This document shows positions 16,097 to 64,000 of a DNA stretch of 64,000 bases, one piece after another. Positions within the stretch are counted from its first letter, which is position 1. Each line of letters begins with the position of its first letter. The position numbers were made by a program, and so were the translations under genes. The DNA comes from Promethearchaeota archaeon (lineage in GTDB: Archaea > Asgardarchaeota > Lokiarchaeia > Sigyniarchaeales > SOKP01). The notes under the pieces were generated by a model that ran no database searches, was not told the DNA's origin, and was given only the letters and a program-made list of their open reading frames with translations. The DNA is taken from the NCBI GenBank assembly GCA_048940925.1, contig JBHLOC010000011.1, forward strand, positions 1 through 64,000. The letters run 5' to 3'.

Positions 16097-16966
16097 ATTA
16101 AGAAATCAATCAAGTTAGCAAATATTCTGCTTAATTACTTAAAGGAATATCAAGGGAAGGCACTTTCGGTTAATGCTTTAAAGAAAAGATTAGATAATTT
16201 TATATTAACACCTAATGAGATAAGGTATGGCAAAAAACATCTTTTTAAAATCTTAAATGAATTGAAATCTAGTGGAAAACTATTTTCAGCATTTTATAAT
16301 GGTGAAATTCATTATTACATTCCTTCTTCCAAATCTGCGACTGAAATGTCTTCTTTTAAAACAAAAAAAGAAAAAAGAGGAAAAAGAGATCGTGAGAGAG
16401 AGAAAGCTGGATTTTTACCACCTTTAATACAAGATAGAAAGGCTTTTCTAGAAGCTCAACCTTTTGTTTGCGATAACTGTAAGAATTTTACAGATACATT
16501 AAGAGAATTTTGCGAGATATGTGGTACCCGATATACTATAAGAAAGGCTACTAGACATGATTTTGAAAAGTATATTAGTAAAAGACAAACAATTCCAGTA
16601 AAAGAACTAGTACCTCCTTTAAAACCTATATCTACAGATGTTATACCAAAATTTAAAAAATCAAAAACTGCTCCAATCAACCTAGATCTTATAGAAGATA
16701 AAATTATTGACAAAGCTCCAAAACCTATTATTAGGAATAATCAAAATGCAGAACGAAAATTACAATCAGTTCCATTATTAACGGAGCAAAGAAGCATAAA
16801 ACCGCGATATACTTCGATTATCCAACCAGACCCAATCTCATCGTTTTCCGAACCCAAGGAAGCGGAATCAAAAACATCTTTTATAAGATGCAAATTCTGT
16901 GGGATGGAATTGTCCGAAGAGTTAAAATTTTGTCCCCAATGCGGATATATAATAAAAAAGAAATAG
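16097..16966 (+). CDS. Winged-helix plus double zinc-ribbon protein (start extended from the ORF-track 16262)
   Basis: Frame open from 16085; added residues ILLNYLKEYQGKALSVNALKKRL...ILNELKSSGKL...GEIHYYI form a wHTH; CDNC/CEICG and CKFCG/CPQCG ribbons; start uncertain (ATT 16097). Confidence 0.6.
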   Translation: MKKSIKLANILLNYLKEYQGKALSVNALKKRLDNFILTPNEIRYGKKHLFKILNELKSSGKLFSAFYNGEIHYYIPSSKSATEMSSFKTKKEKRGKRDREREKAGFLPPLIQDRKAFLEAQPFVCDNCKNFTDTLREFCEICGTRYTIRKATRHDFEKYISKRQTIPVKELVPPLKPISTDVIPKFKKSKTAPINLDLIEDKIIDKAPKPIIRNNQNAERKLQSVPLLTEQRSIKPRYTSIIQPDPISSFSEPKEAESKTSFIRCKFCGMELSEELKFCPQCGYIIKKK

Positions 16967-17010
16967 AATATTTATTGATATTAATAGAAAAAAGTTATCA
17001 ATTAAAATAT

Positions 17011-17652
17011 CTAAATAAAGTATTTTTGTTGCATTTTTACATACTCATTATACTCAATAAACTGTTTTTCAACAAATTCTATAATTATTTCATATAATTG
17101 CCTAAAAAGTTCTTCTGGAAATGCTTTTTGTTCAAAAATTATTTCATTTACTAATTCTTCGGTAAGTATTTGCGAATTTATAGGTTGGCTATATAATAAG
17201 AAATTCATCATCGCTTTTTCTACCTTTTTCTTAGTAATAGTTTTCATTAGATTTAACCGAATGTCTCGCTTAGAATCAACAAAATAAGGAAAATTTGAAT
17301 CATCTAATAATTTAAAATAATTTAATGAGTTACTCATCTTTTCTACACAGTACTCTAAAGAACTTACCTGTAAGCCAAATTTCTGACAAAATTCACTTTT
17401 AGATTCATGGACAGGAAAATTGTATGGATGCCTTGTGATTATATAATATGCAGCTATAAAGAATTTATATAAATTATGAGGGATTTTCGCAGTGATCCTT
17501 AAATATCTATATACTAATGATACAGTATCGAGTAAAAATTCTTGATTAATATCAAACTGCTCCAAAAATTCTAAACCATCTCTTATTAAATCAATGGTTA
17601 TTCGTTCTTTGGTGCTTATTACTTCATAATCAGGGGTATAAAGTTCTAACAT
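17011..17652 (-). CDS. Cyclin-box/TFIIB-repeat-like protein
   Basis: FFIAAYYIITRH...SKSEFCQKFGLQVSSLEYCVEKM resembles the TFB/cyclin fold AAxxYxxxR...EIAxxxGVSxxTI; ATG at 17652 preferred over TTG at 17691. Confidence 0.55.
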   Translation of the reverse strand: MLELYTPDYEVISTKERITIDLIRDGLEFLEQFDINQEFLLDTVSLVYRYLRITAKIPHNLYKFFIAAYYIITRHPYNFPVHESKSEFCQKFGLQVSSLEYCVEKMSNSLNYFKLLDDSNFPYFVDSKRDIRLNLMKTITKKKVEKAMMNFLLYSQPINSQILTEELVNEIIFEQKAFPEELFRQLYEIIIEFVEKQFIEYNEYVKMQQKYFI

Positions 17653-17722
17653 TTTACACACATAATCGTATAATATTGTAATGATATTCAAATGTTATTT
17701 GTATATTATATGATCCATTTTA

Positions 17723-17753
17723 TTTATAAATCTATGCATCTTCAATGATGCAT
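17723..17753. promoter_or_regulatory. TATA-like TTTATAAA plus palindrome ATGCATC-N6-GATGCAT in a divergent promoter
   Basis: Perfect 7-bp inverted repeat at 17734-17740/17747-17753, between the cyclin-like and RHH genes. Confidence 0.4.
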
Positions 17754-17838
17754 TAATTCATCATTTGTGCAAATATTTAAATAATGGAAAAAAAATGATA
17801 ATTATAAGTAAGAATATTTTGTCGGATATTTCAAAAAA

Positions 17839-18264
17839 ATGCCATCAGAAACAAAAAAATCATCAGATCTATCCAGAATTACCTTTAGTCTAGATGCTTT
17901 TGATGAGAAAGTAATAAATTTGATGGCTGAAAAAAGAAAACAATCTCGTTCAGAAACAGTACGTAATATAATACATAATTGGATCGAGGGAAATCCGGAA
18001 TTATTAAGGAGTAATTATGATATTGATTTAACTGATATTACGAGAGAAATTGAAATAACAGATTATAATCAGGTTATTCAAGATTCAATTCAAAAATTAG
18101 TGAGATATGCAGACTTATTCAATGAGATTGAATTCGATATTTTAGCAGAACAACTAGAAATTAGTCGAAAGATTCTAAGAGAAATAATTTTTGATTATAA
18201 AAACAAATTAGAAAAACTGGGAGTTAAACTCCGAATTAGAGGAAAACTAATTATAAAGGAATAA
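17839..18264 (+). CDS. Ribbon-helix-helix (CopG-like) regulator with C-terminal PCI-like winged helix
   Basis: RITFSLD...MAEKRKQSRSETVRNII; LFNEIEFDILAEQLEISRKILREII. Confidence 0.75.
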   Translation: MPSETKKSSDLSRITFSLDAFDEKVINLMAEKRKQSRSETVRNIIHNWIEGNPELLRSNYDIDLTDITREIEITDYNQVIQDSIQKLVRYADLFNEIEFDILAEQLEISRKILREIIFDYKNKLEKLGVKLRIRGKLIIKE

Positions 18265-18279
18265 AGGAGTGACATTAGA

Positions 18280-18555
18280 ATGAGTTCTGGAAAATTAGAT
18301 AAGGATTCTCAAGAAGTTAGGGTAAATCATCACAAAATTGTATTAGAAAGAAGTATAAATATATCCCAGATTGCTATTCCTTTTTCTAAAATGTCTAAGT
18401 CTTATAAACCAATTGATATTTATTCTGGTAGTGAAAAAATCCCCTTCAAGGAAAGAGATCCAAAATATAAAATGATCTTAAAGCAAGAGTTTACTAATAC
18501 CTTAAAAGATGAATTTAAGGTATATAAATCAGTCATAAAATTTCCTACACTTTAA
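18280..18555 (+). CDS. Small hypothetical protein (paralog of 25800-26024)
   Basis: GGAGTGA RBS; shares ISxxxIPFS...DIYxGxExIxFKExD...ILxxEF with the 25800 ORF. Confidence 0.75.
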   Translation: MSSGKLDKDSQEVRVNHHKIVLERSINISQIAIPFSKMSKSYKPIDIYSGSEKIPFKERDPKYKMILKQEFTNTLKDEFKVYKSVIKFPTL

Positions 18556-18578
18556 TATAAAGTTTTAAAAGGCTCTAG

Positions 18579-19073
18579 TTAAATCTCAAGAATATAATCT
18601 ATTTGACGAAACTCCAAATCTTGACTATTATATCTGCAAGTTTCTTTAAATCCACATGAATCATACATTTTTTGTGCGAGAGAAAAGAATGGATGTTCCC
18701 CAGTGGTAACCTTTACTTTTTTCACACCTAATTCTTTAAATATACTAATTATTTTTAGGATTTGAGCCTTCCCAAAACCATTTCCCCTATATTCAGGTAA
18801 AATGCAATTATGACCAACAATTCCCAATTCAGGTCCTTGACGAAGATCATAAGACCCAAAACCAATAATCTTTTCATTATACATTGTTATAAAACCAGAA
18901 GCACCTATTGTTTTGGGAAACTGAAAAATTTTCTTATCATAAATTTTCCATTCTTGTTGCCATTTACTTGCTAAATCTGGCATTTCTGCGGTTAATTCCT
19001 CATAACTTCTCTTTAAAAGTGAATAAATCAAGCCTTCTTTGTATGCTGTAAATTCTTTAAACGCAAGAACCAT
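18579..19073 (-). CDS. GNAT family N-acetyltransferase
   Basis: ILPEYRGNGFGK, AQKMYDSCGF. Confidence 0.88.
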   Translation of the reverse strand: MVLAFKEFTAYKEGLIYSLLKRSYEELTAEMPDLASKWQQEWKIYDKKIFQFPKTIGASGFITMYNEKIIGFGSYDLRQGPELGIVGHNCILPEYRGNGFGKAQILKIISIFKELGVKKVKVTTGEHPFFSLAQKMYDSCGFKETCRYNSQDLEFRQIDYILEI

Positions 19074-19457
19074 TATACTCTTAAGATCATGTATTTGTAG
19101 ATTCTAAAGAAGTATTATTAATCATTTTCTATTGCTTTTTTACATTACGATCTTTTACGGTTTTTTGCTTCATATATCAATTTTAGATGTTTTAAAACAA
19201 GAGTTTATCTAAATCTTAACTGAAAAAATTAAATAACATTAACATTTCTTCATTACCTCGAGCCCAATCTGAATGAATTTCAAAATAATAATTCTATAAT
19301 TTAAATATTACAGTATAAGAAAATAGAAAAGTCAAATTGACAAAAATAGAATTTATTTTATTTACTTATTATGTGTAATATTTTTAAAAGAAGTTAATAA
19401 TTAAATTATAAGGAAGAAATTCTTATAAGATAATAGTAAAAAAACCTAGGTTTTGAT

Positions 19458-51833: not shown

Positions 51834-53252
51834 ATGTTAGTAATATATTATCAAAATATGAAAAATATGGTAGCTAAAACGTTAATTCATAGGACGGGGA
51901 CTAATAGCTTTATTTATATTATTGCGATTGTATCAGGGTTAAGTGGAATGTTATTTGGTTATGATACTGGTGTTATTTCTGGTGCTATTCTTTTTATTAA
52001 GCAAGAATTTTTTCTCTCATCATTTTTACAGGAATTAATTGTTAGTGCTGTATTAATTGGAGCAATAATTGGAGCATTTATAGGTGGATCGTTAGCTGAT
52101 CGTTATGGACGAAGAAAAATGATTATTGTTGCAGCAATTATATTTGCTGGGGGTGCTATTGGGACCTCATTAACACCAAATATAATTTTATTGATCATAG
52201 GGAGAATAATTGTAGGAATTGCTATAGGAATGGCATCTTTTATTGCTCCACTCTATATCTCTGAAATGTCTCCACCAAGGATTAGAGGATCATTAGTATC
52301 CTTAAATCAATTGTTTATTACCATAGGTATTGTTATATCTTACTTGGTTGATTATGCATTTACTCCTCTAAATGGTTGGCGTTATATGCTTGGTTTAGCA
52401 GCTATTCCTGCAACTATATTATTAATAGCCATGATCTTCATGCCAAACAGCCCACGATGGCTAATAAATTATGGAAATGTGGATAAAGCGCGTACTACAT
52501 TGATGAAGATCCGAAGGACTGATAATATCAATGATGAGCTCAATGAAATCGTGACCAGCTTAAATAAGCAAAAAGGAGGGAGGAAAGAATTGTTAAATCC
52601 TTTAATAAAACCTGCAATGATCGTGGGTATATCATTAGCTATTTTCCAACAAGTTACAGGAATTAACACCGTGATATATTATGCTCCAACTATTTTTGAA
52701 TTTGCGGGATTTCAATCTTCTGCGGCTGCTATCTTTGCGACAATTATAGTAGGAATAGTGAATGTAGGTTTTACTCTTGTTGCAATATTTTTGTTGGATC
52801 GTGTCGGACGGCGTAAATTATTGTTACTTGGTTTAGCTGGCATGAGTGGAATGCTCATAATGCTAGGGATAGTATTTGTTTTACCTAGTTTGTTAAATCA
52901 ATTGGGAACATTAGCCGCAATTAGCTTAATGGCGTATGTTGCCTTTTTTGCTATTGGCTTAGGACCAGTCTTTTGGTTATTAATATCCGAGATATATCCT
53001 CTAAAAGTGAGGGGTCTTGCAATGAGCATTGTAACAGAAGCAAATTGGGGATCTAACTTAATAATCGCTTTAACTTTTTTAACCTTAATTCAATTATTGG
53101 GACGTTCAGGTACGTTTTGGCTTTATGCTGCTGTAGGGATAATGGCATTAATCTTTACGTATATTTATGTTCCAGAAACTAAGGGAAGAACCTTAGAAGA
53201 AATTGAAGAACATTGGCGTGGAAGAAAACATCCACGAGAATTGGGGAGATGA
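51834..53252 (+). CDS. Sugar porter family MFS transporter (GalP/XylE-like)
   Basis: FGYDTGVISGA, DRYGRR, PLYISE, QQVTGINTVIYY, PETKGRTLEEI. Confidence 0.96.
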   Translation: MLVIYYQNMKNMVAKTLIHRTGTNSFIYIIAIVSGLSGMLFGYDTGVISGAILFIKQEFFLSSFLQELIVSAVLIGAIIGAFIGGSLADRYGRRKMIIVAAIIFAGGAIGTSLTPNIILLIIGRIIVGIAIGMASFIAPLYISEMSPPRIRGSLVSLNQLFITIGIVISYLVDYAFTPLNGWRYMLGLAAIPATILLIAMIFMPNSPRWLINYGNVDKARTTLMKIRRTDNINDELNEIVTSLNKQKGGRKELLNPLIKPAMIVGISLAIFQQVTGINTVIYYAPTIFEFAGFQSSAAAIFATIIVGIVNVGFTLVAIFLLDRVGRRKLLLLGLAGMSGMLIMLGIVFVLPSLLNQLGTLAAISLMAYVAFFAIGLGPVFWLLISEIYPLKVRGLAMSIVTEANWGSNLIIALTFLTLIQLLGRSGTFWLYAAVGIMALIFTYIYVPETKGRTLEEIEEHWRGRKHPRELGR

Positions 53253-53258
53253 TATTTT

Positions 53259-55676
53259 ATGAACAAAAAAAAGGTTTATGACGGTGAAGCACCAGGACAT
53301 CCGGGAAAAGATCCAAGTTGGACATCGAGCGCAAAAGATGGAGTAGGAACATCTATATCTCGTGGAAGCCTAGTTTGGTTTACATTATCTGGTGGTATAA
53401 TTAATGAGGTATATTATCCCCGAATTGATCAAGCAAATATTCGGGATTTTCAATTTCTTATTACCAATGGTACTGATCTTGTCGAAGAAGAAAAAATTGA
53501 TTGTGATCATAAGATTTCCATGTTAGAAGAAGGAGCTCCGGCGTATAAAATCACAAATACATCGCATCAAAAAAGATATGCGATAGAAAAAATAATTTTA
53601 ACTGATCCTAGAAGGGATGTACTATTGTTAAAAGTAAAGTTCACTCCCCTAAAAGGACAATTAGATGATTACCGTCTTTATACAATTTTGAATCCTCATA
53701 TCAAGAACTTTGGCTATGGAAACGATAGCTGGGTAGGTGATTATAAAGGTATTCCCATGCTTTTTGCTCAGAGAGAGGATATTGTACTAGCCTTAGCATG
53801 TTCTACACCTTTTATCAACATGAGTTGTGGATATTATGGTATAAGTGATGGTTGGCAAGACATTAATAAAAATCGTACCTTAACGCAATATTATTCCCAC
53901 GCATCAAATGGAAATGTTGTTATAACGGGGGAAGTTGATTTAAAAGCAAGTAATGGAAACTTTATTTTAGTTGTCGCATTTGGAAATAATCCTGCAGAAG
54001 CTGGACAACTTGCCCGTACTGCTTTGTTTAATGACATCGATCAAGTAATTAAGGATTATATGTCTTATTGGCTAGAATTTCAGCAAAAATGTAAAAACTT
54101 AGATCAAGTTGGAGAAAAAGGATTCAATATTTACAGGTTAAGTACGATAGTCTTGAAAACTCACATGGATAAACGCTTTTCGGATGGCTCAATAGCGAGT
54201 TTATCAATTCCTTGGGGATTTGCCAAAGGTGATGATGATTTAGGGGGTTATCATTTAGTATGGCCAAGGGATCTTGTTGAAACTGCAGGTGGACTTCTTG
54301 CAGTGGGAGCCAATTTAGAAGCTCTCCAAATCATGATTTATTTAATGACTACTCAAAATGAAGACGGACACTGGCCTCAAAACATGTGGTTAGATGGTAC
54401 CGAATATTGGCCTGGTATACAAATGGATGAAACTGCTTTTCCAATATTACTTGCAAATGCTCTAAAAGAGAATGGACTCCTTCAAAAGATCAATATTTGG
54501 CCTACTATAAAGAAAGCTGTGAGTTTCTTAGCATGTGATGGGCCTATTTCTCAAGAAGATCGATGGGAAGAAGATCCAGGTTATTCTCCCTTCACTTTAG
54601 CAGTAGAAATTGCTGCTCTTCTTATTGCATCAGAATTTGCTCGAGGTGCGGGGGAACCTCAAATTGCTAAATATTTAACAGAACTAGCAGATTATTGGAA
54701 TTCCAATATCGAAAATTGGACTTACATTAGGGACTCAGAACTAGCGAAGAAACTAAATATTGAAGGTTATTATGTTCGAATAGGTCCCCCTGATCTTCCT
54801 GATGCTGCTTCACCTAAGAATGGGTATGTCCCTATTAAGAACAGACCTCCTAATGAAAGTAAAGCTCCTTTTGAATATATTGTAAGTCCTGATGCCTTAG
54901 CCTTAGTACGATTTGGATTACGAGCTGCTGATGACCCAAAGATCGTTAATACAGTGAAAGTTATTGATTCTATGCTAAAAATAAAAACTTCAACAGGTCC
55001 TGTATGGCATCGTTATAATAGAGACGGATACGGAGAACATTTAAATGGAGATGCTTTTGACGGTACTGGAATTGGTAGGGGTTGGCCACTACTAACTGGT
55101 GAACGTGCTCATTATGAACTAGAGAAAGGAAATATTGAAAGAGCAAAAAAACTTTTAAAGGTGATGGAAGCACAGACCGGTCCGGGAGGACTTATTCCTG
55201 AACAAGTTTGGGATGCCAAAGATATTCCTCAAAAAAATCTGTTTAATGGACATCCTTCAGGTTCTGCTATGCCCTTGGTTTGGGCGCATTCTGAATATGT
55301 AAAATTAGTGCGTTCATTAGAAGATAGCAAAATTTTTGATATGCCCCTTCAAACTAAACAGAGATATGTTAAAGAAGACCATCCATCAAATCTAAAAATA
55401 TGGAAATTTAATCATAAATGTTCTAAAATAAATACAGGAAAGATTTTGAGAATTGAATTGAGAGCAGAAGCGAATATTCGATGGTCTATTGATGATTGGA
55501 ATACATTTCAAGAGTCTGAAACAATTGATACAGGATTAGGTATCTATTATGTAGATTTACCTACAAAAGATTTAGTTAAACCAAAAAAATTGAGTTTTAC
55601 AATTTATTGGTTAGCTCAAGATAAGTGGGAAGGTTCTAATTACGAAATTCAATTAATTTCTGAGAGCTTTGACTAA
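53259..55676 (+). CDS. Glucoamylase/glucodextranase, GH15
   Basis: APGHPG...W...KDGVGT, ASLSIPWG, GGYHLVWPRD, QMDE, DRWEE, PEQVWD, SAMPLVWAHSEY. Confidence 0.95.
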   Translation: MNKKKVYDGEAPGHPGKDPSWTSSAKDGVGTSISRGSLVWFTLSGGIINEVYYPRIDQANIRDFQFLITNGTDLVEEEKIDCDHKISMLEEGAPAYKITNTSHQKRYAIEKIILTDPRRDVLLLKVKFTPLKGQLDDYRLYTILNPHIKNFGYGNDSWVGDYKGIPMLFAQREDIVLALACSTPFINMSCGYYGISDGWQDINKNRTLTQYYSHASNGNVVITGEVDLKASNGNFILVVAFGNNPAEAGQLARTALFNDIDQVIKDYMSYWLEFQQKCKNLDQVGEKGFNIYRLSTIVLKTHMDKRFSDGSIASLSIPWGFAKGDDDLGGYHLVWPRDLVETAGGLLAVGANLEALQIMIYLMTTQNEDGHWPQNMWLDGTEYWPGIQMDETAFPILLANALKENGLLQKINIWPTIKKAVSFLACDGPISQEDRWEEDPGYSPFTLAVEIAALLIASEFARGAGEPQIAKYLTELADYWNSNIENWTYIRDSELAKKLNIEGYYVRIGPPDLPDAASPKNGYVPIKNRPPNESKAPFEYIVSPDALALVRFGLRAADDPKIVNTVKVIDSMLKIKTSTGPVWHRYNRDGYGEHLNGDAFDGTGIGRGWPLLTGERAHYELEKGNIERAKKLLKVMEAQTGPGGLIPEQVWDAKDIPQKNLFNGHPSGSAMPLVWAHSEYVKLVRSLEDSKIFDMPLQTKQRYVKEDHPSNLKIWKFNHKCSKINTGKILRIELRAEANIRWSIDDWNTFQESETIDTGLGIYYVDLPTKDLVKPKKLSFTIYWLAQDKWEGSNYEIQLISESFD

Positions 55677-55880
55677 CTAATAGTTCAATTAAACCATGAA
55701 TTATGAGAAATAAGCCTAAAATTCAAATTTTCTATTCTTATGAAAATTTATAATTTCTTTTTTTGAATTATTAATATCGTGTCTTCTTTTATGAGATTTA
55801 ACACCATTTGAGTTTTATTATTTCAACTCTGGATAGATATCATGTATTTTTGACTGAAAATTTCGCATATTTTTGATCTG

Positions 55881-56012
55881 GATGATTTTGATCATACATA
55901 TCCTAAAGGAATGTCATCATTTGTTAAATTTTATTATTCACATCATGAAATAGTTTATCAAAATCTAGAAGATCCACAAAAAATCTATACTCTATTTTTG
56001 AAAATTTGATAG
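55881..56012 (+). repeat. Diverged orphan copy of the 51292 gene 3' half
   Basis: DDFDHTYPKGMSSFVKFYYSHHEIVYQNLEDPQKIYTLFLK vs DNFDHTLPNGLSSFAKFYFSYHKLIYKNQEDPHKIYTEFLK (51391-51520). Confidence 0.88.
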
Positions 56013-56093
56013 GAAATACTTAATATTTTTAATAAATTAGATTAAGCAATTTAGATAGCAATTTCAATTAAAGCAAATATAAATTACAAGAGA

Positions 56094-56522
56094 ATGGCAA
56101 ATAATTATTTTCTCCCTGAAATTAATCTAGCAGTGATGGCGATAACTACTGTATTTTACACATTAGGATGTGTATTTTACGGAAACAAAAGATTTTCTAA
56201 AAAACTACACTTTCGATTTTCATTTTTAGGATGGATTAGTACATTAATTTTTTTTCTTATCTATATGCTTCAACGAAGTCTAATTGGAAGCTTATCACCA
56301 CCTTCATATTTAGAGGGGCTGTATACTCCTTCTCTCATCGTACATATGATAACAGCTACAATAACATTAATCGTTCCAGCATTACTATTAACAATTGGAA
56401 TTTTACAAAGAAAAGAAAAGACTAAAATGAGCATGAAAAAAATAGGAAATGTTAATGTAATTTTGTGGTATATTACTTTTATTAGCGGTATTATTATCTA
56501 TCTGTGTCTTCATATCCTATAA
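56094..56522 (+). CDS. DUF420-like 4-TM membrane protein
   Basis: 4 TM; KLH, FFLIY, LIVH, LWYITFISG pattern. Confidence 0.6.
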   Translation: MANNYFLPEINLAVMAITTVFYTLGCVFYGNKRFSKKLHFRFSFLGWISTLIFFLIYMLQRSLIGSLSPPSYLEGLYTPSLIVHMITATITLIVPALLLTIGILQRKEKTKMSMKKIGNVNVILWYITFISGIIIYLCLHIL

Positions 56523-56553: not shown

Positions 56554-57021
56554 CTACTCAGGTATAATTATTGAGTGATCCTCTTTTATACGGTCTAAAA
56601 CAATCTCTGTTTTGACCTCATCTACTCCTGAAAGATTGCGGAGTGTTTCTATAAGATCCATGGAGTCTGAATGATCTAGACATTTTGCCATAATGAACAG
56701 TGGATATTCTCCAGTAACTACATATGCATATTTTATTTTTTCCATCCCCTCAATCTCTTGTTTTAAATGCTCCAATGGTTTTGTAGCATTTACTCTCAGA
56801 GATGCCATCACCATTTCTCTATATCCCAATTGATGACAATCGATTAAAGCAACATATTTTTTTATTAATTCTTTTTCAAGCCGTTGAATTCGTGCTCTTA
56901 TCGCAGTAGCACTCTTTTTTGTTTTATGAGCAATTTCTCTTATAGTTAATTTTGCATCATTTTGTAATAAATCAAGAATTTGACGATCTATATCATCAAG
57001 AGTTCCATTTGTTGATACCAT
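56554..57021 (-). CDS. Lrp/AsnC family transcriptional regulator
   Basis: LDDIDRQILDLLQNDAKLTIREIA HTH; VTGEY RAM domain. Confidence 0.93.
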   Translation of the reverse strand: MVSTNGTLDDIDRQILDLLQNDAKLTIREIAHKTKKSATAIRARIQRLEKELIKKYVALIDCHQLGYREMVMASLRVNATKPLEHLKQEIEGMEKIKYAYVVTGEYPLFIMAKCLDHSDSMDLIETLRNLSGVDEVKTEIVLDRIKEDHSIIIPE

Positions 57022-57331
57022 AAAATCAATCCTTTTGATAATTTTTCAAGTTTTATTATTACTAATTATAATATATTAATTTCTTACTTTTTTCAAAAAG
57101 TAATATATTCTATTTTTAATATATAAGTTTTGATTTATAATTTTTTTCACTACTAACTTATATTGCTATAGTTTTATTTGGTTATTAAATTATTTGTTTA
57201 TAGAAATAAAAACTATGATTTAAATATGATTTTGCATTTTTAACTATTAAAGTTATCATATGTAAACTATTATGATAACAAAAGTAAAAAAAATAAATAA
57301 AAAAACTAAAAAAAGTAAAAATGTGAAAAAA

Positions 57332-57556
57332 ATGGCTGTTCAAACATTTGATTATACTGGACTGAAATGTCCAATGCCAGTTTTGAAAACTAAAAAAGAA
57401 TTAAGAAATTTGGAATCAGGAAAAGTTATAGAAGTAATTGCAGATGATGTTGGCGCCAAAAAAGATATTCCTGCGTTACTTAACAAATCTGGCGATGAAT
57501 TGGTTGATATTCGAGAAGATAATGGAAATATAACATTTGTTATTAAGAAAGCTTAG
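57332..57556 (+). CDS. tusA: Sulfurtransferase TusA family
   Basis: DYTGLKCPMP motif; likely start MAVQ at 57332. Confidence 0.92.
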   Translation: MAVQTFDYTGLKCPMPVLKTKKELRNLESGKVIEVIADDVGAKKDIPALLNKSGDELVDIREDNGNITFVIKKA

Positions 57557-57585
57557 ATCGTACGATATTGAGAGTAGAGATTGCG

Positions 57586-57954
57586 ATGAGTAAATATATT
57601 TTCTTTATTAGTACGGAGCCTTACAAGTATCAGTCTATTGACTCTATGATAGAGCTAGGGAAAGCTGCAATAAGAAAAGGTCATGAAATAAAAGGAATAT
57701 TCTTCTTTGGAACAGGTGTATACAATCTTAAAAAAGATATTAGTTGTGGAAGTTCTATTAGAAATATTCCTGAGAAAATCGAACAATTTAGCAGAGAGTA
57801 CAACATTCCTGTTTCTGGTTGCAGCACTTGGGTGAGTTTAACTGGATTAAAAGAATCAGAATTCATAGAAGGAGCGACTGAAGAAGGATTAGGAGACCTC
57901 TCTAACTGGGCAATAAATGCTGATAAACTTATTGTATTTGGAGCAGGAGGTTAA
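57586..57954 (+). CDS. dsrE: DsrE/TusD sulfur-relay subunit
   Basis: GHEIKGIFFFGTGV, active-site-like GCSTW, GLGDL...ADKLIVF. Confidence 0.82.
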   Translation: MSKYIFFISTEPYKYQSIDSMIELGKAAIRKGHEIKGIFFFGTGVYNLKKDISCGSSIRNIPEKIEQFSREYNIPVSGCSTWVSLTGLKESEFIEGATEEGLGDLSNWAINADKLIVFGAGG

Positions 57955-57959
57955 CTCTT

Positions 57960-58328
57960 ATGGTAGAATCAGTATTAATTATAAGTGATCAATCTCCAAT
58001 TGGGAGAAATTATGCAATAGAGGCAATTCGCATTGGATCAGGATTTACTGCTCTCGGAGAATACATTGATTGCAAGGTTGTATTTATGGGAGATGCTATC
58101 TATCTGTTCAATAAACATTCTAAACCTGAGAGCGTGGGATTAGATCCATTTACAGAAGTTTTAGAGATGGCTGATTTGTCCGATTTAGAGGTATATCTCA
58201 TTGAGTCTGCTTTAACCGATGTGGGGGTATCAAGGGATGATCTGATTGAATATGAAAACTTGAAGATTATCAATTATGATGATTTAGTAGAGTTAATTGC
58301 CAATGCTGACACATGTTTTAGATTTTAA
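57960..58328 (+). CDS. dsrF: DsrF/TusC sulfur-relay subunit
   Basis: SPIG..AIEAIR, VVFMGDAIY; position between dsrE and dsrH. Confidence 0.78.
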   Translation: MVESVLIISDQSPIGRNYAIEAIRIGSGFTALGEYIDCKVVFMGDAIYLFNKHSKPESVGLDPFTEVLEMADLSDLEVYLIESALTDVGVSRDDLIEYENLKIINYDDLVELIANADTCFRF

Positions 58329-58343
58329 TGGAGGTTGGAAATA

Positions 58344-58685
58344 ATGAACACCGAACTTGAAATAATTTATTTATTTGGATTTAGCTCAAATACAGGATCT
58401 CATTTACGGAGATTATTACCTATTTTAAAAGCTCAACTCAATAAACAAACAAAACTTGGAATTGTTTTAATTCATGATGGAGTAATTGGTATATCCACAA
58501 AGGGAAAAGTATCGAAGCAAATAGAAGATCTGTTAAATTTAGACGTAACTATATTTGCTATGAAGCCTGACATGATGGCTCGCGGAATTGCTCCCGAATT
58601 TGCTCAAAATAGAGTCAAATGTATAGAGTATGATAATCTTATAGATCTAATTGACGCTACACCAAAGATTATATCCTGGATGTAA
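58344..58685 (+). CDS. dsrH: DsrH/TusB sulfur-relay subunit
   Basis: LIHDGV, DMMARGI, IEYDNLIDLI, terminal ISW; ATG 58344 follows GGAGG. Confidence 0.82.
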   Translation: MNTELEIIYLFGFSSNTGSHLRRLLPILKAQLNKQTKLGIVLIHDGVIGISTKGKVSKQIEDLLNLDVTIFAMKPDMMARGIAPEFAQNRVKCIEYDNLIDLIDATPKIISWM

Positions 58686-58795
58686 GTAATATATAAAAAA
58701 TCTAAATAAAATATTTTTAAAAACGATCTGGAGTTAACCAGATAAAAAATAACTTAAAGTAAATAAATTGGAAAAAAAATTAAAAAACTAAAAAG

Positions 58796-59227
58796 GTGGT
58801 ATATGTGGCTGAAACAGAAACAATAAATTTTATTGTTAAGGATAAATCATTCGAAAAGTTCGCAATGATGATGATCCTTGGAACAACAGGTGACGCTATG
58901 GATACTAAAATGAATTTTTTCTTTACTTTTTGGGGTTTAAACCTTCTAAAGAAGAATTTTAAACCTAAAGTTGCTGGGATGCCTGCTCCAATGAAAGGTA
59001 TGGCAACAAAGATGTTTAAGAAAAGAATGAAAAAATTTGGAATTGAAGATCCATGGGGAATGATTAAAGATGCTGTTGATAACGGGAATGTTAAATTATA
59101 TCCATGTCAAATGACTATGGAGTTAATGGGGATAAAACGGGAAGAATTGCTTGATTGGGTAGAAGAACCTGTTGGTGCTGCTTCATTTTTAGAAATGAGT
59201 AATGGCGGTAGAATAGTAAGTTTATAG
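58796..59227 (+). CDS. DsrE2/DrsE-type (peroxiredoxin-like) sulfur carrier
   Basis: FFFTFWGLNLL, LYPCQMTMELMG, VGAASFL; start may be GTG 58805. Confidence 0.88.
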   Translation: MVYVAETETINFIVKDKSFEKFAMMMILGTTGDAMDTKMNFFFTFWGLNLLKKNFKPKVAGMPAPMKGMATKMFKKRMKKFGIEDPWGMIKDAVDNGNVKLYPCQMTMELMGIKREELLDWVEEPVGAASFLEMSNGGRIVSL

Positions 59228-59276
59228 ATTTAAACAAAATTTTTTTTATTTTATATTTCAAAAATGGTGATGATAA

Positions 59277-59834
59277 ACGTCTGAAGTAAAAGAAGAAATA
59301 AGAGAATTTAAAACAGACGAAGATTTTGATACAGAATTTTTTAAAGATATTGAAAGAAGGTCAAATATTTGGCAGTGCATCCAATGTGGCACATGCACCG
59401 CTAGCTGTGAAAGTGGGAGATGGACTGCTTTAAAAACTCGTATAATTGTGAGAAAAGTTGTTTTAGGAGATTTATCGGTATTAAAAGATCCTGATATTTG
59501 GTTGTGTACAACATGTTATCAGTGTTATGAACGATGTCCGCGTGATGTAAGACCTACAGATGTAATTATGGAATTGCGAAATTATGCAACTAAGTTGGGT
59601 AACATTTCTCCTAATCATAGGGCTGTAGTAGGATATTTAAAGAATTTTGGACATGCTGTTCCAATAAATGAAGAAGTAAGAAAAAGACGAGTTGAATTAG
59701 GGTTAGAAGAATTACCCCCTACTGCATTTAGATTTAAACAGGAAGGGGACGATAAAGATTTGAAAAATATAGAAGAAAATTTGTTTTATTTACCTCCAAT
59801 TAAGGAGGGCAAAAAAAGTAAAGAGGAGTCTTAA
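59277..59834 (+). CDS. hdrC: Heterodisulfide reductase subunit C
   Basis: CIQCGTCTASC (upstream of the ORF-track start) and IWLCTTCYQCYERCPRDV; frame opens at ACG 59277. Confidence 0.9.
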   Translation, partial: TSEVKEEIREFKTDEDFDTEFFKDIERRSNIWQCIQCGTCTASCESGRWTALKTRIIVRKVVLGDLSVLKDPDIWLCTTCYQCYERCPRDVRPTDVIMELRNYATKLGNISPNHRAVVGYLKNFGHAVPINEEVRKRRVELGLEELPPTAFRFKQEGDDKDLKNIEENLFYLPPIKEGKKSKEES

Positions 59835-59837
59835 AAT

Positions 59838-60755
59838 ATGACGAAAGAAAATACATTTGCTTTTTTTCTTGGATGTATAATGCCTAATCGATATCCTGCG
59901 ATTGAAAAAGCGACTAAATTTGTCATGGAAAAGTTAGGATACGAGTTGTTAGAAATGGAACGTGCGACTTGTTGTCCAGCGCCTGGTGTTTTCCGTTCGT
60001 TTAACAAAGTAGATTGGATGGTAACTGCCGCAAGAAATCTATGTATTGCGGAAAAGTTGGATGCTGATATCTTGACCGTGTGCAATGGATGTTTTGGTAC
60101 GCTTCAAGAAGTAAATAGGCATTTAAAAGAAAATGAGGAACATCGAGAATTAGTGAATGAAAGGCTTAAGCTGATTGGTGATTACGAATTTAAAGGGACT
60201 ATTAACGTTCGACATGTTGCAGAAGTCTTAGGATATGAAGTAGGACCTTGGGGAATTGAGGATCATATTGTAAGAAAAGTGAATGCTAATGTTGCAGTTC
60301 ATTACGGTTGTCACTTCTTAAAGCCAACAAGGATACGTGAAATTGAAAGTTCAGAAAATCCAACTATCATTGAAGAATTTATTGGAGCTTTAGGAGTACA
60401 ATCAGTTCGATTTAAAGAACAACTTACTTGTTGCGGTGCAGGAGGCGGCGTTAAGGCATATTCTGGGGATTCAAGTATGACAATTTTCGCAGAGAAAATG
60501 AAAAACATTGACGAAGTAAAACCAGACTTCATATTGGATATCTGTCCATTCTGTCATTTACAATTTGAAACGGGGCAGGATTACTTAAACAAGAATAAAG
60601 CATGCAATTACGATTATCCTGTAATTCACCTTTCCCAGCTTGTTGCGTATTGTATGGGAATGGACCAAGAATTTGTAGGATTACAGTATCAATTAATGGG
60701 AAGAGATTATATTTTTGGCGGAGAAGAAGTTAAAAAAGGGGAGGAGGCTATTTAA
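59838..60755 (+). CDS. hdrB: Heterodisulfide reductase subunit B
   Basis: FLGC, CCPAPG, CNGC, HYGCH, CCGAGGG, CPFCHLQF. Confidence 0.95.
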   Translation: MTKENTFAFFLGCIMPNRYPAIEKATKFVMEKLGYELLEMERATCCPAPGVFRSFNKVDWMVTAARNLCIAEKLDADILTVCNGCFGTLQEVNRHLKENEEHRELVNERLKLIGDYEFKGTINVRHVAEVLGYEVGPWGIEDHIVRKVNANVAVHYGCHFLKPTRIREIESSENPTIIEEFIGALGVQSVRFKEQLTCCGAGGGVKAYSGDSSMTIFAEKMKNIDEVKPDFILDICPFCHLQFETGQDYLNKNKACNYDYPVIHLSQLVAYCMGMDQEFVGLQYQLMGRDYIFGGEEVKKGEEAI

Positions 60756-62792
60756 ATGACAATCAAAGAAGAAAAGCTAAAAGAAACAAGCGAAATTCGG
60801 AGCGAAATAGAACAAATAAAAGAAGAAGACCCACGAATTGGAGTTTTTATATGTCATTGTGGGCATAATATTGCAGGGACCGTTGATGTGGCGGATGTTG
60901 CTGAATACGCAAAAACTTTACCCAATGTTGTCAATGCAGAACATTATATGTTTATGTGCAGTAAACCAGGAGTTCAAATGGTTAAGGATTCTATTAAAGA
61001 GTTAGGAGTTAACAGAACAGTAGTGGCATCGTGTTCAAAAAATCAGCACGGAAGAACATTCGCTAATGCTATTCAAGAAATGGGATTAAACAAACATCGG
61101 CACCAGCAGGTAAATATAAGAGAATTTGACAGTTGGGTGCATCAAAAAGAAAAAGAAAAAGCTACGTTAAAGGCAAAACGATTAGTTGAAGCAGGAGTTA
61201 ATAGAGCGAGAAAACTAAAGGATGTGGAAACACGTAGAATAGGAACCACAAAAGCTGCCTTAGTAATTGGTGGGGGTATCGCTGGTCTTCGCGCATCTCA
61301 CGATCTAGCGGAATTAGGAATTCCAGTCTATCTCATAGAGCGAGAATCAACGATAGGAGGTCACATGACCCAATTGAATAAAACATTTCCTACTTTGGAA
61401 TGTCCACAATGTTCAATATCTCCACTTACTAATGGAGTTGCGAACCATCCATTAATCGAACTTTATACGAATGCACAGATAAAAGAAGTTGAAGGCTCGA
61501 TGGGTAATTTTGAAGTGGCAGTAGAGATTAAACCACGATATATTAAAGATAATTGTACTTCATGTGGAGAGTGCGCAATTCATTGTCCAGTGGAAGTTCC
61601 TAGTGAGTGGGATAAAGGCATGTCAATGAGACACGCTATTTATAAAGCCTATCCACAAGCAATTCCCGCTACTTATGTAAGAGACAAAAAGAATTGTATT
61701 GAGTGTAATACTTGCATTAATGTATGTCCCGTACAAGCTGTTGATTTTTCAATGCAACCGGAGACCAAAAGGTTTAAAGTAGGCTCAATAGTAGTAGCTG
61801 CAGGATACGAAGAATACGATCCTTCAGAGATTGAGCCATATCATTATAAACAAGAAGGATACGAAAATGTTATAACGCAACTTCAATTAGAACGAATGCT
61901 GGCTCCAGGGTCGCTTACTAACAGTCAAGTATTACGCCCATCGGATGCAAAAGTACCAAAGAATGTGGTAATGATTCAATGCGTAGGAAGCAGAAACGAT
62001 CAAGTAGGAAACCAATATTGCACTGGTGTTTGTTGTAAATTTGCTGTTAAAAACGCAAGAATTGTTAAGGAAATGTATCCTAACACAAATGTTACCATTT
62101 GTTATATCGATGTTAGGACACCTGGATTGAATTTCGAGGAACTATACAAGTCTGCTCAAGAAGTTGGAGTGCGCTTTATTAGAGGGAGACCGTCAGAAAT
62201 CATTAGAGATCCTGTCTCTGGAGAGTTAAAAGTTAGCGTTGAAGATACCTTAAGTCAAACACCTTTAAGACTTAAAGGCGATTTAGTTGTACTCTCCGCA
62301 GCGATGGTTCCACCACAAGGAATTGGTCCTTTAGGGTCAAAACTACAAGTTCTAAGGTCAAAAGAAGGATTTCTAAAAGAATTTCATATTAAAATGAATC
62401 CTACTTTAAGCAGTAAAGGGGGTATCTTTTTAGCAGGAGCAATTCAAGGACCGAAAGATATCTCAGAATCGGTTGCTCACGCAGGAAGTGCTGCAGCGAT
62501 AGCAGCTGCTCCGTTAGTAAAGGGTTATATTGAAAAAGAAATGCTAATCCCGTCTGTAGATTTAGATTTATGTGTTAGATGTGGACTGTGCAAAACCGTT
62601 TGTTCTCCTGCAGCTATTCAAATGAGTGGGGATGGAACGCCCGTGATTAACGAAGTTGCGTGTAAATCTTGCGGTATGTGCATGCCTGCGTGTCCAACTG
62701 GAGCAATACAATTGTTAAATTTTAGTGACGAACAATTATTAGATGAAATAATCGCCGTATCAGGCGGAGGTGTTATTTGCGAAAATGAGTGA
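60756..62792 (+). CDS. hdrA: Heterodisulfide reductase subunit A
   Basis: RIGVFICHCGHNI, VNIRE, GGGIAG, KTFPTLEC, ferredoxin inserts, QCVGSR, YCTGVCC, QGPKDI. Confidence 0.96.
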   Translation: MTIKEEKLKETSEIRSEIEQIKEEDPRIGVFICHCGHNIAGTVDVADVAEYAKTLPNVVNAEHYMFMCSKPGVQMVKDSIKELGVNRTVVASCSKNQHGRTFANAIQEMGLNKHRHQQVNIREFDSWVHQKEKEKATLKAKRLVEAGVNRARKLKDVETRRIGTTKAALVIGGGIAGLRASHDLAELGIPVYLIERESTIGGHMTQLNKTFPTLECPQCSISPLTNGVANHPLIELYTNAQIKEVEGSMGNFEVAVEIKPRYIKDNCTSCGECAIHCPVEVPSEWDKGMSMRHAIYKAYPQAIPATYVRDKKNCIECNTCINVCPVQAVDFSMQPETKRFKVGSIVVAAGYEEYDPSEIEPYHYKQEGYENVITQLQLERMLAPGSLTNSQVLRPSDAKVPKNVVMIQCVGSRNDQVGNQYCTGVCCKFAVKNARIVKEMYPNTNVTICYIDVRTPGLNFEELYKSAQEVGVRFIRGRPSEIIRDPVSGELKVSVEDTLSQTPLRLKGDLVVLSAAMVPPQGIGPLGSKLQVLRSKEGFLKEFHIKMNPTLSSKGGIFLAGAIQGPKDISESVAHAGSAAAIAAAPLVKGYIEKEMLIPSVDLDLCVRCGLCKTVCSPAAIQMSGDGTPVINEVACKSCGMCMPACPTGAIQLLNFSDEQLLDEIIAVSGGGVICENE

Positions 62793-63237
62793 ATGCGAAT
62801 ATATTGAGCCAGAAGTACTCGAGAAAATGGAAAATATAGTTGTATTTATGTGTAACGAATGTGGTCAGGGATCAGCAAATACGGCTGGTGTAGCCCGAAT
62901 GTCCTATAATCCAGCTATACGTATAGTTAGGGTTCAATGTACGGGACAAGTCGGTCCTATTCAAATAATGGATGCACTTGATAATGGTGCTGATGCTGTG
63001 GCCTGCATAGGCTGTTGTTTGGGTGCTTGCCACTTCTTTAACGGTAACATTCTTTCAATGCACAGAATTAAACTTTTGAAAAAATTATTCAAAGAATTAG
63101 GGTATAGCGATCAATTTGTAAATCAGTATACTTCACGAGCCGCGGAAGCAGAAACTGCGGTTGGGGATTTTGAGGATTTAGTAGAGCGTTTAGCTACAGC
63201 AATTAGAGAGGAGGGAACATTTAAAGATGGATGTTAA
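62785..63237 (+). CDS. mvhD: Methyl-viologen-reducing hydrogenase delta subunit
   Basis: CNEC, IRIVRVQCTG, GADAV, GCCLGACHF..GN; ATG 62785 overlaps the hdrA stop. Confidence 0.9.
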   Translation: MSECEYIEPEVLEKMENIVVFMCNECGQGSANTAGVARMSYNPAIRIVRVQCTGQVGPIQIMDALDNGADAVACIGCCLGACHFFNGNILSMHRIKLLKKLFKELGYSDQFVNQYTSRAAEAETAVGDFEDLVERLATAIREEGTFKDGC

Positions 63238-64000
63238 AGTGTTTCAATTTAACGGATGCAATAAATGTTTTAATGAAAGCATATTATTGAAAGGTGATTC
63301 AAGCTATAAAGTAGAGTTTGTCTCTGATCCCAGAAGTTGGAAAGAGGAAAAAGCAGATGTCTCTATAATTACTGGTTATCTATTACCGGATGATAAGGAG
63401 ATATTGAATAAAATAAAATTAAATTCAGATAAAATTATTGCTTATGGGGATTGTACGACCACAGGAGGAGTCTTTGCCTTATCAAATCAACGAGGACATG
63501 AAGTGACGCCATTGCAAGACTTAATTGATGGCGTTATAAATATTAATGGTTGTTTAGGTGAGATCGAGGAACTTCAATCTGAAATAAAAGGTGAAGAATT
63601 ACCAAAGTTGAAGAATCTATGCACAGTGTGTGGTCGTAGGAAAACTTGTGATTACCTAGAACAAGTTAATCGTCAAATAGAATTAGATGACGAAGAAAAG
63701 TGTTTTAATGATCTTGGATACCTATGCAATGGGTTTATTGCTAAAGAATGTAAAGAACGATGTATAGATTACAATGCTCCATGTCGTGGCTGCAAGCCAA
63801 CAATTGAACGCTCGGGAATTCGAATGTTAGGGATGTTTGGTACACTAATGGGTAATATCGAAGTTGCCACAGAACATTCTGAAAAAGGAGCCACAGATAA
63901 ATTAGCAGATAAAGACGACGAAATTACAGCGAGCTTACCAGATGTAATTGGAAATTTCTTTAGATTCACACTTCCCAAATCAGGTTTACCTAAAGGGAGG
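63227..64000 (+). CDS. mvhG: [NiFe]-hydrogenase small subunit MvhG-like (partial; runs off the window; not in ORF track)
   Basis: Manual translation MDVKVFQFNGCNKC...AYGDCTTTGG...NGC...CTVC...CFNDLGYLCNG...C..RC...NAPCRGC. Confidence 0.82.
   Translation, partial: MDVKVFQFNGCNKCFNESILLKGDSSYKVEFVSDPRSWKEEKADVSIITGYLLPDDKEILNKIKLNSDKIIAYGDCTTTGGVFALSNQRGHEVTPLQDLIDGVININGCLGEIEELQSEIKGEELPKLKNLCTVCGRRKTCDYLEQVNRQIELDDEEKCFNDLGYLCNGFIAKECKERCIDYNAPCRGCKPTIERSGIRMLGMFGTLMGNIEVATEHSEKGATDKLADKDDEITASLPDVIGNFFRFTLPKSGLPKGR

Follow-up and report, generated by a model that had tools for sequence, protein, structure and literature searches.

A 102-kb contig (C55) of a Promethearchaeota archaeon carries, at the end of its first 64 kb (the stretch analysed here, which we call the window), a block of co-directional genes in which a sulfur relay (TusA, DsrE, DsrF, DsrH and a DsrE2-type protein) stands ahead of the heterodisulfide reductase (Hdr) genes hdrC, hdrB and hdrA, mvhD and an mvhG-like gene. 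The block continues past the window end with the rest of the mvhG-like gene, then a gene fusing FrhB and GltD, then a second tusA (tusA2). We propose, at a little short of an even chance, that the encoded Hdr complex carries out electron bifurcation driven by F420H2 or NAD(P)H and that the oxidant of HdrB is sulfane sulfur bound to the co-encoded carriers, or a disulfide of these carriers. The source is an Asgard genome of 4.8 Mb and 29% G+C, rated 100% complete, and gene identities were taken from a listing of open reading frames together with Pfam and NCBIfam scans.

Linkage of the sulfur relay to the hdr genes

We scanned the GTDB species representatives for the mvhG-like gene, which encodes a fusion protein described below (the MvhG fusion), and found 72 loci. 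All were Asgard, and they included Promethearchaeum syntrophicum MK-D1, Lokiarchaeum ossiferum, Harpocratesius repetitus, Sigynarchaeum and Thorarchaeota. The 13 block proteins were mapped onto these loci, with counts limited to loci with enough flanking DNA. Upstream sequence of 6.3 kb or more is available for 38 Lokiarchaeial loci, and in each of them tusA1-dsrE-dsrF-(dsrH)-dsrE2 lies ahead of hdrCBA, mvhD and the mvhG and frhB fusion genes; dsrH was detected in every one of them but MK-D1. The relay genes fall within 7.5 kb in 37 of the 38, dsrE and dsrF being further out in Harpocratesius. At the other end, 56 Lokiarchaeial loci have sufficient downstream sequence, and tusA2 adjoins the frhB fusion gene in 54 of them. 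The co-clustering of relay and hdr genes, for which the earlier note had suggested a synteny survey, is thus a conserved feature.

The gene order differs between lineages. Nearly every locus also has an Lrp homologue, whose gene is divergent and upstream in family f1 and lies between dsrE2 and hdrC in MK-D1, L. ossiferum and Harpocratesius. Loci of the Thorarchaeota type (n=7) encode a plain FrhB of 346 aa without the NfnB insert found in Lokiarchaeia; tusA2 follows FrhB in most of them and tusA2-dsrEFH in three, and the Lrp homologue is divergent from hdrC in three. A metagenome contig has the order dsrE-dsrF-hdrCBA-mvhD-mvhG (fusion)-frhB-tusA. The association is kept through three gene orders, which we regard as strong evidence of a functional link.

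Full-length MvhG fusions were found in 79 of 400 genomes of the phylum. Among 1.8 billion representatives, the search returned about five full-length clusters and fragments, followed by a sharp drop to ordinary MvhG. The same search, which looked for the family outside Asgards, gave two longer MvhG-like matches (P0085 and P0066), the contexts of which were uninformative.

The Hdr core

HdrA and HdrB were typed by comparison with solved structures instead of by a tree. These comparisons and an equivalog score bear out, for both subunits, the earlier view that this Hdr is of the methanogen type and distinct from the sHdr of sulfur oxidisers. HdrB passed the cut-off of the CoB-CoM HdrB equivalog (TIGR03288, 375.8 bits; cut-off 345.15). 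Its top profile match was HdrB of M. marburgensis (E 1e-111), phmmer matched it to HdrB of M. thermolithotrophicus (E 6e-92), and E values against five solved methanogen HdrB sequences were 1e-74 to 3e-94. All ten cysteines of its CCG domains are invariant in 17 orthologues. HdrA is full-length, with N-terminal, thioredoxin-reductase-like, inserted and C-terminal ferredoxin domains, and residues 24-665 align end to end with residues 2-646 of M. thermolithotrophicus HdrA (5odc_A; E 5e-194). The match to the short sHdrA of Hyphomicrobium (6TJR; E 7e-37) covers residues 344-586 only. With the NCBIfam HdrA2 model (NF040770), which expects a fused MvhD, HdrA scored 737 bits, under the cut-off of 1100. 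A rhodanese match at the HdrA N-terminus (E 7.5e-4, below cut-off) was taken as noise. Judged by these alignments, the Hdr of the block is of the methanogen type, presumably bifurcating, and not an sHdr.

The start of hdrC is unusual. No ATG, GTG or TTG precedes the first iron-sulfur motif, and the frame opens at an ACG (59277), from which it must be read if both CxxCxxCxxxC motifs are to be present. This ACG directly follows TGA-TGA-TAA, behind a Shine-Dalgarno-like motif, GGTGATGATAA. Close relatives have ATG at this position, and a second genome (G073, locus L062) repeats both this ACG and the GGTGATGATAA ahead of it, so that an assembly error is unlikely. The ACG is possibly a non-canonical start, or a sign of translational coupling.

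We mapped the substrate pocket of HdrB by pairwise alignment onto the residues that contact CoM-SH and CoB-SH in 5ODR, namely Arg14, Gly46, Gly198, Arg201, Phe233 and Arg240 (2026 study, PMC13261682). Arg14 corresponds to R18, which is invariant in the 17 orthologues, and Gly46, Gly198 and Phe233 are kept as G50, G203 and F238. Arg201 is conservatively changed to K206. Arg240 is replaced by T245, and M. marburgensis HdrB has Val at the same position.

Hdr genes are numerous in this genome: HdrB-type loci number seven and HdrA-like genes at least ten, and CCG domains occur in about 27 proteins. The relay is in the operon at only one of the seven HdrB loci, namely this block. The HdrB of the block is closer to methanogen HdrB (311-319 bits, E ~1e-92) than to the paralogues of its own genome (at most 255 bits). 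The seven paralogues (on contigs C55, C48, C35, C70, C40 and C84) fall into two active-site classes: one methanogen-like, with CCGAGGGV(R/K) and CPFCHLQF, comprises the block HdrB, one of two on C48 (C48b) and that on C35; the other, with CCGS-- and CPACFQQF, comprises the second on C48 (C48a), which adjoins a true MvhA, and three others. Also on C48 (91556-95000, locus L072) is a second hdrCBA-mvhD-polyferredoxin operon, with the methanogen-like HdrB signature. It is divergent from a gene for a 467-aa MvhG-like protein, followed by hypE and hypD, with no adjacent large subunit. Here may lie another decayed or unusual hydrogenase arm.

The putative electron-input arm

MvhD retains its six cysteines (C28, C31, C57, C82, C83 and C87) in 70 of 70 orthologues. 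The MvhG fusion aligns over residues 1-257 to the whole of MvhG (5odc_E 3-295; profile search) and has, in an alignment of 17 orthologues, 12 invariant cysteines in its first 190 residues and none past residue 189. Both a small subunit with three iron-sulfur clusters and an MvhD with a [2Fe-2S] cluster, as in group 3c MvhAGD hydrogenases, are therefore encoded. We found no PF00374 gene, that is, no large subunit with CxxC Ni-Fe ligands, in or beside the block; the downstream mvhA that the earlier note had envisaged is missing, and the mvhG-like gene is followed instead by the FrhB::GltD fusion gene.

The nature of the C-terminal part of the MvhG fusion emerged from an AlphaFold model (predicted template modelling score 0.77, C-terminal part confident), which was compared with 48,161 solved chains in an all-against-all structural search. 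Residues 263-411 of the model superposed on the large subunit FrhA (6qgt_A; Z 13.6, root-mean-square deviation 2.5 Å, 148 residues aligned), and on other large subunits (4kl8_L, Z 13.0; 5aa5_C, Z 12.7). The remnant was visible only by this search: small subunits dominated a Foldseek search with the whole model, and no large-subunit chain was among the 60 best of 91 matches in a profile search of the PDB. On the evidence of the model, the protein is a complete iron-sulfur small subunit fused to a shrunken [NiFe] large-subunit remnant devoid of Ni-Fe ligands. The mvhG of the earlier note is thus present as a homologue, but the gene is a 411-aa fusion of MvhG and dead MvhA that ends at 64462, past the window.

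Because mvhA is missing and the remnant is free of cysteines, the complex is apparently not H2-driven, and the H2-dependent HdrABC-MvhADG of the earlier note did not hold up. The true [NiFe] large subunits of the genome are encoded on contigs C48 and C85. In three closed genomes, the only [NiFe] large subunit is likewise far from the block (MK-D1, where the distance is ~3 Mb, L. ossiferum and Harpocratesius).

The product of the next gene (the FrhB fusion) consists of an FrhB N-half, a complete NfnB/GltD-type module (Fer4_20 and Pyr_redox_2), an FrhB C-half and a helix-turn-helix-like tail. The best solved relatives are F420-dependent sulfite reductase and F420 dehydrogenase beta subunits for residues 1-174, NfnB, SudA and GltD for residues 178-620, and FrhB for residues 684-762. 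The genome encodes F420 synthesis, with CofH (463 bits; cut-off 374) beside a CofG-like gene and two CofE matches. As in the Elp-Hdr complex of a methanogen, the donor subunit is an FrhB-family flavoprotein in a host that makes F420; its use of F420 is putative. In Sigynarchaeum (L046), an in-frame TAA lies inside the FrhB::GltD fusion gene.

Sulfur carriers and missing partners

The carrier cysteines noticed earlier (in CPMP, GCSTW and PCQMT) are conserved across orthologues. The CPMP cysteine of TusA1 is kept in 53 of 53 orthologues, which are 74-77 aa long and start at the MA... position. DsrE, DsrF and DsrH are three paralogous subunits in the Pfam order DsrE, DsrE, DsrH, which corresponds to E-F-H, with the active cysteine on DsrE. 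This cysteine, in GC(S/T)TW, is invariant (43/43 orthologues), Cys38 of DsrF is kept in 43 of 44, and DsrH has no conserved cysteine in the orthologue alignment. Against the equivalog models, DsrE scored 52.5 bits (TIGR03012, cut-off 89) and DsrF 38.5 bits (TIGR03010, under the cut-off), so that the TusD and TusC scores lie below their cut-offs; the TusB score, that of DsrH, lies above (TIGR03011, 52.2 bits; cut-off 49.2). The DsrE2-type protein keeps its PCQMT cysteine in 48 of 48 orthologues, and among solved structures it is best matched by 2QS7, over its full length (E 2.5e-16). This structure is SSO1126, the DsrE2B of an sHdr-linked dsrE3A-dsrE2B-tusA cluster of Sulfolobales (PMC4175335).

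TusA2 is a distinct and highly conserved subfamily (74% mean column identity). A cysteine four residues upstream of the active one is present in 57 of 65 orthologues, and other lineages have a C-terminal cysteine in ECVK. The idea of TusA2 as a DsrC mimic with a second, resolving cysteine was dropped, since at least one orthologue has the active cysteine alone. Complex prediction for HdrB, HdrC and TusA2 as partner (17-row alignments) gave scores of 0.01 and 0.00, which we count neither for nor against an interaction.

The absence of DsrC/TusE, stated earlier for the window, extends to the whole genome: its model (PF04358) detected the E. coli control but had no match in this genome, in the closed genomes of MK-D1, L. 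ossiferum and Harpocratesius or in two genomes of Thorarchaeota. The other searches aimed at a coenzyme M/coenzyme B (CoM/CoB) or dsrAB/dsrC context were equally negative in this genome. There was no match for McrA (PF02249), for NIR_SIR sulfite reductases including the DsrAB type, or for ComA (PF02679), a search that covers neither ComA-independent CoM routes nor CoB synthesis. YeeE/TsuA had no match in the genome either. The MnmA model (PF03054) gave only weak PP-loop matches and was detected in all 14 control genomes; we give this search no weight.

Further relay genes occur elsewhere in the genome. A second dsrEFH (C20:13677-14796, locus L069; 45-51% identical) follows a MarR gene and an S-adenosylmethionine methyltransferase gene and is convergent with genes for an HdrD-like CCG protein and a GlcD-like FAD protein. 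Genes for TusA, a DsrE-like protein, cysteine desulfurase and NifU (C7:147800-151700, locus L070) are convergent with a gene for another CCG-domain protein; this cluster is likely a housekeeping iron-sulfur and sulfur relay.

Organization of the locus

The ten genes from tusA to mvhG that the earlier note had listed as co-directional and tightly spaced were all identified by Pfam and NCBIfam at the same positions, as was the Lrp regulator divergent from tusA1 (Table 1). Neighbouring genes of the block overlap by up to 23 nt or are separated by up to 110 nt, and downstream of the last gene lies a T-rich tract. The gap between dsrH and dsrE2 (58686-58795), otherwise rich in A and T, contains an inverted repeat with perfect 6-bp arms (ATCTGG-AGTTAA-CCAGAT), possibly a hairpin or a regulator site.

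Table 1. Genes of the block and the divergent regulator gene; positions past 64000 are those of the contig.
Gene	Position	Strand	Remarks
Lrp/AsnC-family regulator	56554-57021	-	HTH_AsnC-type E 3e-14, AsnC_trans_reg; divergent from tusA1
tusA1	57272-57556, probable true start ATG 57332	+	PF01206 TusA E 8e-25
dsrE	57568-57954, probable start ATG 57586	+	PF02635
dsrF	57960-58328	+	PF02635
dsrH	58335-58685, probable start ATG 58344	+	PF04077
DsrE2B-type carrier	58796-59227	+	PF13686 E 5e-26
hdrC	59277-59834	+	ACG at start position; TIGR03290 128 bits on truncated reading frame
hdrB, two CCG domains	59838-60755	+	TIGR03288 375.8 bits (cut-off 345.15)
hdrA	60756-62792	+	678 aa; NF040770 737 bits
mvhD, [2Fe-2S] connector	62770-63237	+	PF02662 E 8e-32
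mvhG-like fusion	63227-64462 (window end 64000)	+	Oxidored_q6; 411 aa
frhB::nfnB/gltD fusion	64465-66933, past window	+	822 aa; FrhB_FdhB_N/_C, Fer4_20, Pyr_redox_2
tusA2	66974-67210, past window	+	second tusA; probable true start ATG 66974, 78 aa

The flanking genes are unrelated to sulfur or Hdr functions on the upstream side, where a sugar-porter transporter of the major facilitator superfamily, a glycoside hydrolase family 15 glucoamylase/glucodextranase and a DUF420 protein are encoded just before the Lrp gene (51834-56522). Past the window (C55:68175-73961) are genes for three paralogous TPR proteins, two of which have a weak C-terminal RING-finger match (zf-C3HC4_3), a feature reminiscent of eukaryotes.

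Discussion

We suggest that the whole locus is one functional unit, the core of which would be a methanogen-type, flavin-based bifurcating HdrABC-MvhD. The nickel-free fusion of MvhG and MvhA remnant would act as a three-cluster iron-sulfur wire and scaffold, with the FrhB-family flavoprotein alongside as the input. This donor arm is proposed because of the analogy with Elp-Hdr, in which a dead scaffold and an FrhB homologue feed Hdr. In Lokiarchaeia, the FrhB fusion with its inserted NfnB/GltD-type NAD(P)H/FAD module could make NAD(P)H an added or alternative donor. Electron pairs from F420H2 and/or NAD(P)H would pass through the FrhB fusion, the MvhG fusion and MvhD to the flavin of HdrA, which would bifurcate them to ferredoxin (one electron, uphill) and to HdrBC. 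At HdrB, the oxidant would be zero-valent sulfur delivered as a persulfide, or a carrier-derived di- or trisulfide, from TusA1, DsrEFH, DsrE2B and TusA2, and the products would be H2S and free carrier thiols. Such a system may dispose of electrons on sulfur, restoring oxidised F420/NAD(P) and gaining reduced ferredoxin; reductive release of sulfide for biosynthesis is a less likely role. That a complex forms, which donor it uses, which way the reaction runs and, most of all, that sulfur is the substrate are inferred.

The linkage and its survival through rearrangements, the invariant carrier cysteines, the sHdr-type DsrE2B, the intact Hdr, the lack of a CoM/CoB context and the donor arm all favour reduction of carrier-bound sulfur. 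DsrC/TusE, the canonical acceptor of DsrEFH, is absent, so the relay must end elsewhere. With DsrEFH present in the absence of DsrC/TusE and of a CoM/CoB context, the most economical oxidant would be sulfur on the co-encoded carriers, and synteny suggests that HdrB reduces a persulfide on TusA or DsrE.

Several points weigh against this proposal. Most of the CoB/CoM contacts are kept in HdrB, and the pocket as aligned lends no support to a changed substrate; it still looks suited to a small anionic thiol that enters through a narrow tunnel. The cysteines of TusA and DsrE are not on flexible arms, unlike those of DsrC. Moreover, the S0 or polysulfide/H2S couple (~ -260 to -270 mV) is too low in potential for F420H2 (-340 mV) to power the reduction of ferredoxin; very low H2S, or a carrier disulfide or trisulfide of higher potential as the actual oxidant, would be needed. 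The tie between carriers and HdrB is also putative, and the AT-rich gaps between dsrH and dsrE2 (110 nt) and between dsrE2 and hdrC (49 nt) leave room for promoters, which would separate the transcription of relay and hdr genes. The distribution of DsrH is broader than that of the block. DsrH-family proteins occur in 217 of 400 Asgard genomes compared with 79 for the block, in 70 of 89 genomes of the Thorarchaeota family f31 compared with seven, and in small Asgard genomes (~1.4 Mb) that lack the block. Together with the second dsrEFH on C20, this indicates that Asgard DsrEFH has work independent of Hdr. In Harpocratesius repetitus FW102 (L043), finally, cysteine desulfurase and ThiF genes lie among the relay genes (16514-19089), and the FrhB::GltD gene is reduced to a remnant of 142 aa (8968-9393).

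We consider it unlikely that the substrate of HdrB is instead a small (hetero)disulfide comparable to CoM-S-S-CoB and formed from a hypothetical Asgard thiol, with the relay serving synthesis of that thiol or another accessory task. The conserved pocket argues for it, since the CoB-phosphate contact Arg14, the tunnel residue Phe233 and the CoM-binding glycines are kept and Lys replaces Arg201, and the one contact lost (Arg240) is not conserved in M. marburgensis HdrB either (Val). So do the TIGR03288 score and the greater proximity of this HdrB to methanogen HdrB than to its own paralogues. But ComA and McrA were not found in the genome, no thiol-cofactor pathway is known for Asgards, and the persistence of five carriers with the hdr genes through three rearrangements would be left unexplained. 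Somewhat less likely again, in our estimate, is that the relay performs housekeeping sulfur trafficking (tRNA or cofactor thiolation, or iron-sulfur supply) and is a mere neighbour of Hdr or a supplier for maturation of its clusters. The spread of DsrH to Asgards without the block, even to those of ~1.4 Mb, would fit such a role, as would the interleaved ThiF and cysteine desulfurase genes of Harpocratesius; sulfide supply for biosynthesis is moreover an open need in a genome in which NIR_SIR and YeeE/TsuA were not found. Housekeeping functions seem, however, to be provided already by the C7 cluster with its tusA, dsrE-like, cysteine desulfurase and NifU genes and by the second dsrEFH. They also would not lead one to expect a highly conserved tusA2 subfamily beside the frhB gene in nearly all Lokiarchaeial and most Thorarchaeota-type loci, or an association that lasts while gene order shifts between lineages.

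The complex might also run in the oxidative, sHdr-like direction, so that sulfane sulfur or sulfide is oxidised at HdrB and, by confurcation with reduced ferredoxin, F420 or NAD(P)+ is reduced; this we think very improbable. Hdr reactions are reversible in principle. TusA and DsrE-type carriers including DsrE2B are hallmarks of sulfur oxidisers with sHdr or rDsr (PMC4175335, PMC11094781). HdrA, on the other hand, is of the full bifurcating type and not a short sHdrA, the shdrC1B1AHC2B2 layout is absent, no gene for a lipoate-binding protein was seen among the annotated block genes, and the NIR_SIR search of the genome found no sulfite-handling enzyme. The hosts, in addition, are fermenters and strict anaerobes, for which no high-potential acceptor is obvious (PMC7015854). 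Hardly any credence is left for the version of the earlier note, in which H2 oxidised by MvhADG drives HdrABC to reduce a TusA/DsrE persulfide. Genes for MvhD and for a homologue of MvhG do follow hdrA, and the passages considered here of a 2025 preprint draw the same scheme for another Asgard. But the sequence already contradicts it: mvhA is absent, the large-subunit remnant (~150 aa) lacks any conserved cysteine that could hold Ni-Fe, the [NiFe] large subunit is far from the block in MK-D1, L. ossiferum and Harpocratesius, and the MvhA-linked HdrB of this genome is a paralogue with a divergent active-site signature.

A stronger form of the carrier-sulfur proposal, which we put forward as doubtful, is that the block encodes the first Hdr to use protein-carried zero-valent sulfur as its high-potential acceptor. 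It would then be an F420H2/NAD(P)H-driven bifurcating "carrier-persulfide reductase" that provides Lokiarchaeia, the cultured strains among them, with a sulfur sink and reduced ferredoxin, with TusA2 or DsrEFH in the place of DsrC.

Asgard genomes are full of Hdr paralogues, and these organisms presumably make no CoM-S-S-CoB; the block is the one case in which a conserved linkage points to a concrete candidate substrate and donor for an Asgard Hdr. Its presence in the cultivated strains MK-D1 and L. ossiferum makes the proposal testable at the bench. Our analysis also corrects a common annotation error: where "MvhADG-HdrABC" is called from mvhD and mvhG-like genes, a hydrogenase can be lacking, and conclusions on Asgard H2 metabolism change accordingly. 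MK-D1 itself was annotated with "MvhADG-HdrABC" as its one hydrogenase by Imachi et al. (2020; PMC7015854). If the stronger form of our proposal is true, the closest archaeal relatives of eukaryotes have an unrecognised sulfur-dependent energy metabolism, which would bear on hydrogen-sulfur syntrophy models of eukaryogenesis.

Comparison with known systems

Action of Hdr on TusA/DsrE persulfides is not a wholly new idea. A preprint on Nerearchaeum marumarumayae (bioRxiv 10.1101/2025.07.22.663070) proposed, in the passages considered here, that cytosolic Asgard Hdr reduces TusA- and DsrE-bound persulfides to sulfide. Unlike in our scheme, the donor there is H2 via a group 3c [NiFe] hydrogenase and the aim is sulfur assimilation; the same passages describe neither a conserved hydrogenase-free block nor its distribution. 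In the literature that we searched, we likewise found nothing on this hydrogenase-free block, on where it occurs or on its Elp-like logic.

The carriers recall two other kinds of system. The block resembles sHdr-LbpA of Hyphomicrobium, Aquifex and Sulfolobales in that genes for TusA and DsrE-family carriers go together with those for an Hdr-like enzyme. It encodes TusA twice, along with a DsrE2B-type protein, the nearest solved relative of which, SSO1126, comes from such a cluster. Unlike sHdr, the block has a long bifurcating HdrA and a single hdrCB pair, without HdrC2B2 or sHdrH. No GcvH-like/LbpA gene was seen in the block, which was the extent of the search for LbpA. DsrEFH, known from rDsr and Tus systems, is present, and the hosts are anaerobic fermenters. 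With DsrEFH-DsrC/DsrK (DsrMKJOP) and TusBCD-TusE the block shares the E-F-H order, the active cysteine on DsrE and TusA as the probable donor. DsrK, the CCG-domain enzyme of sulfate reducers, reduces a carrier-bound trisulfide, which resembles the reaction suggested here for HdrB. The block differs from these systems in the absence of DsrC/TusE in six of six genomes tested and in that no DsrAB-type sulfite reductase was found; compared with TusBCD-TusE, scores are below the TusD and TusC equivalog cut-offs.

The electron-transfer part is closest to complexes of methanogens. HdrA, HdrB, HdrC, MvhD and the MvhG part are full-length homologues of their counterparts in MvhAGD-HdrABC (5ODC), with the 12 iron-sulfur cysteines of MvhG kept. 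Unlike that complex, the block has no functional large subunit, hence no H2 chemistry, and its oxidant may well differ. Functionally, the nearest parallel is the Elp-Hdr complex (ElpABC-HdrABC) of Methanothermobacter marburgensis (PDB 8RVU, 8RVV, 8RVY and 8RWN), where electrons from F420H2 reach HdrABC by way of an FdhA remnant that lacks molybdopterin, a homologue of FrhB/FdhB and one of MvhD (PMC12350162). The HdrB of Elp-Hdr is also the top profile match of the HdrB encoded here (E 1e-111). Unlike the truncated FdhA of ElpA, the scaffold here derives from MvhG and MvhA, and FrhB of Lokiarchaeia has an NfnB/GltD module inserted and ends in a winged helix-turn-helix-like tail. Elp-Hdr works in a methanogen with CoM-S-S-CoB as acceptor; here no Mcr or ComA was found and a sulfur relay is attached. 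The two systems share an HdrABC core, an MvhD-type [2Fe-2S] connector, a dead scaffold with an FrhB/FdhB-family flavoprotein in place of the hydrogenase, and a host that makes F420. The block is a second, independent case, after Elp-Hdr, of a catalytic subunit that has decayed into a scaffold for an FrhB-type donor on Hdr: an Hdr complex with an exchangeable donor arm, here joined to a persulfide relay.

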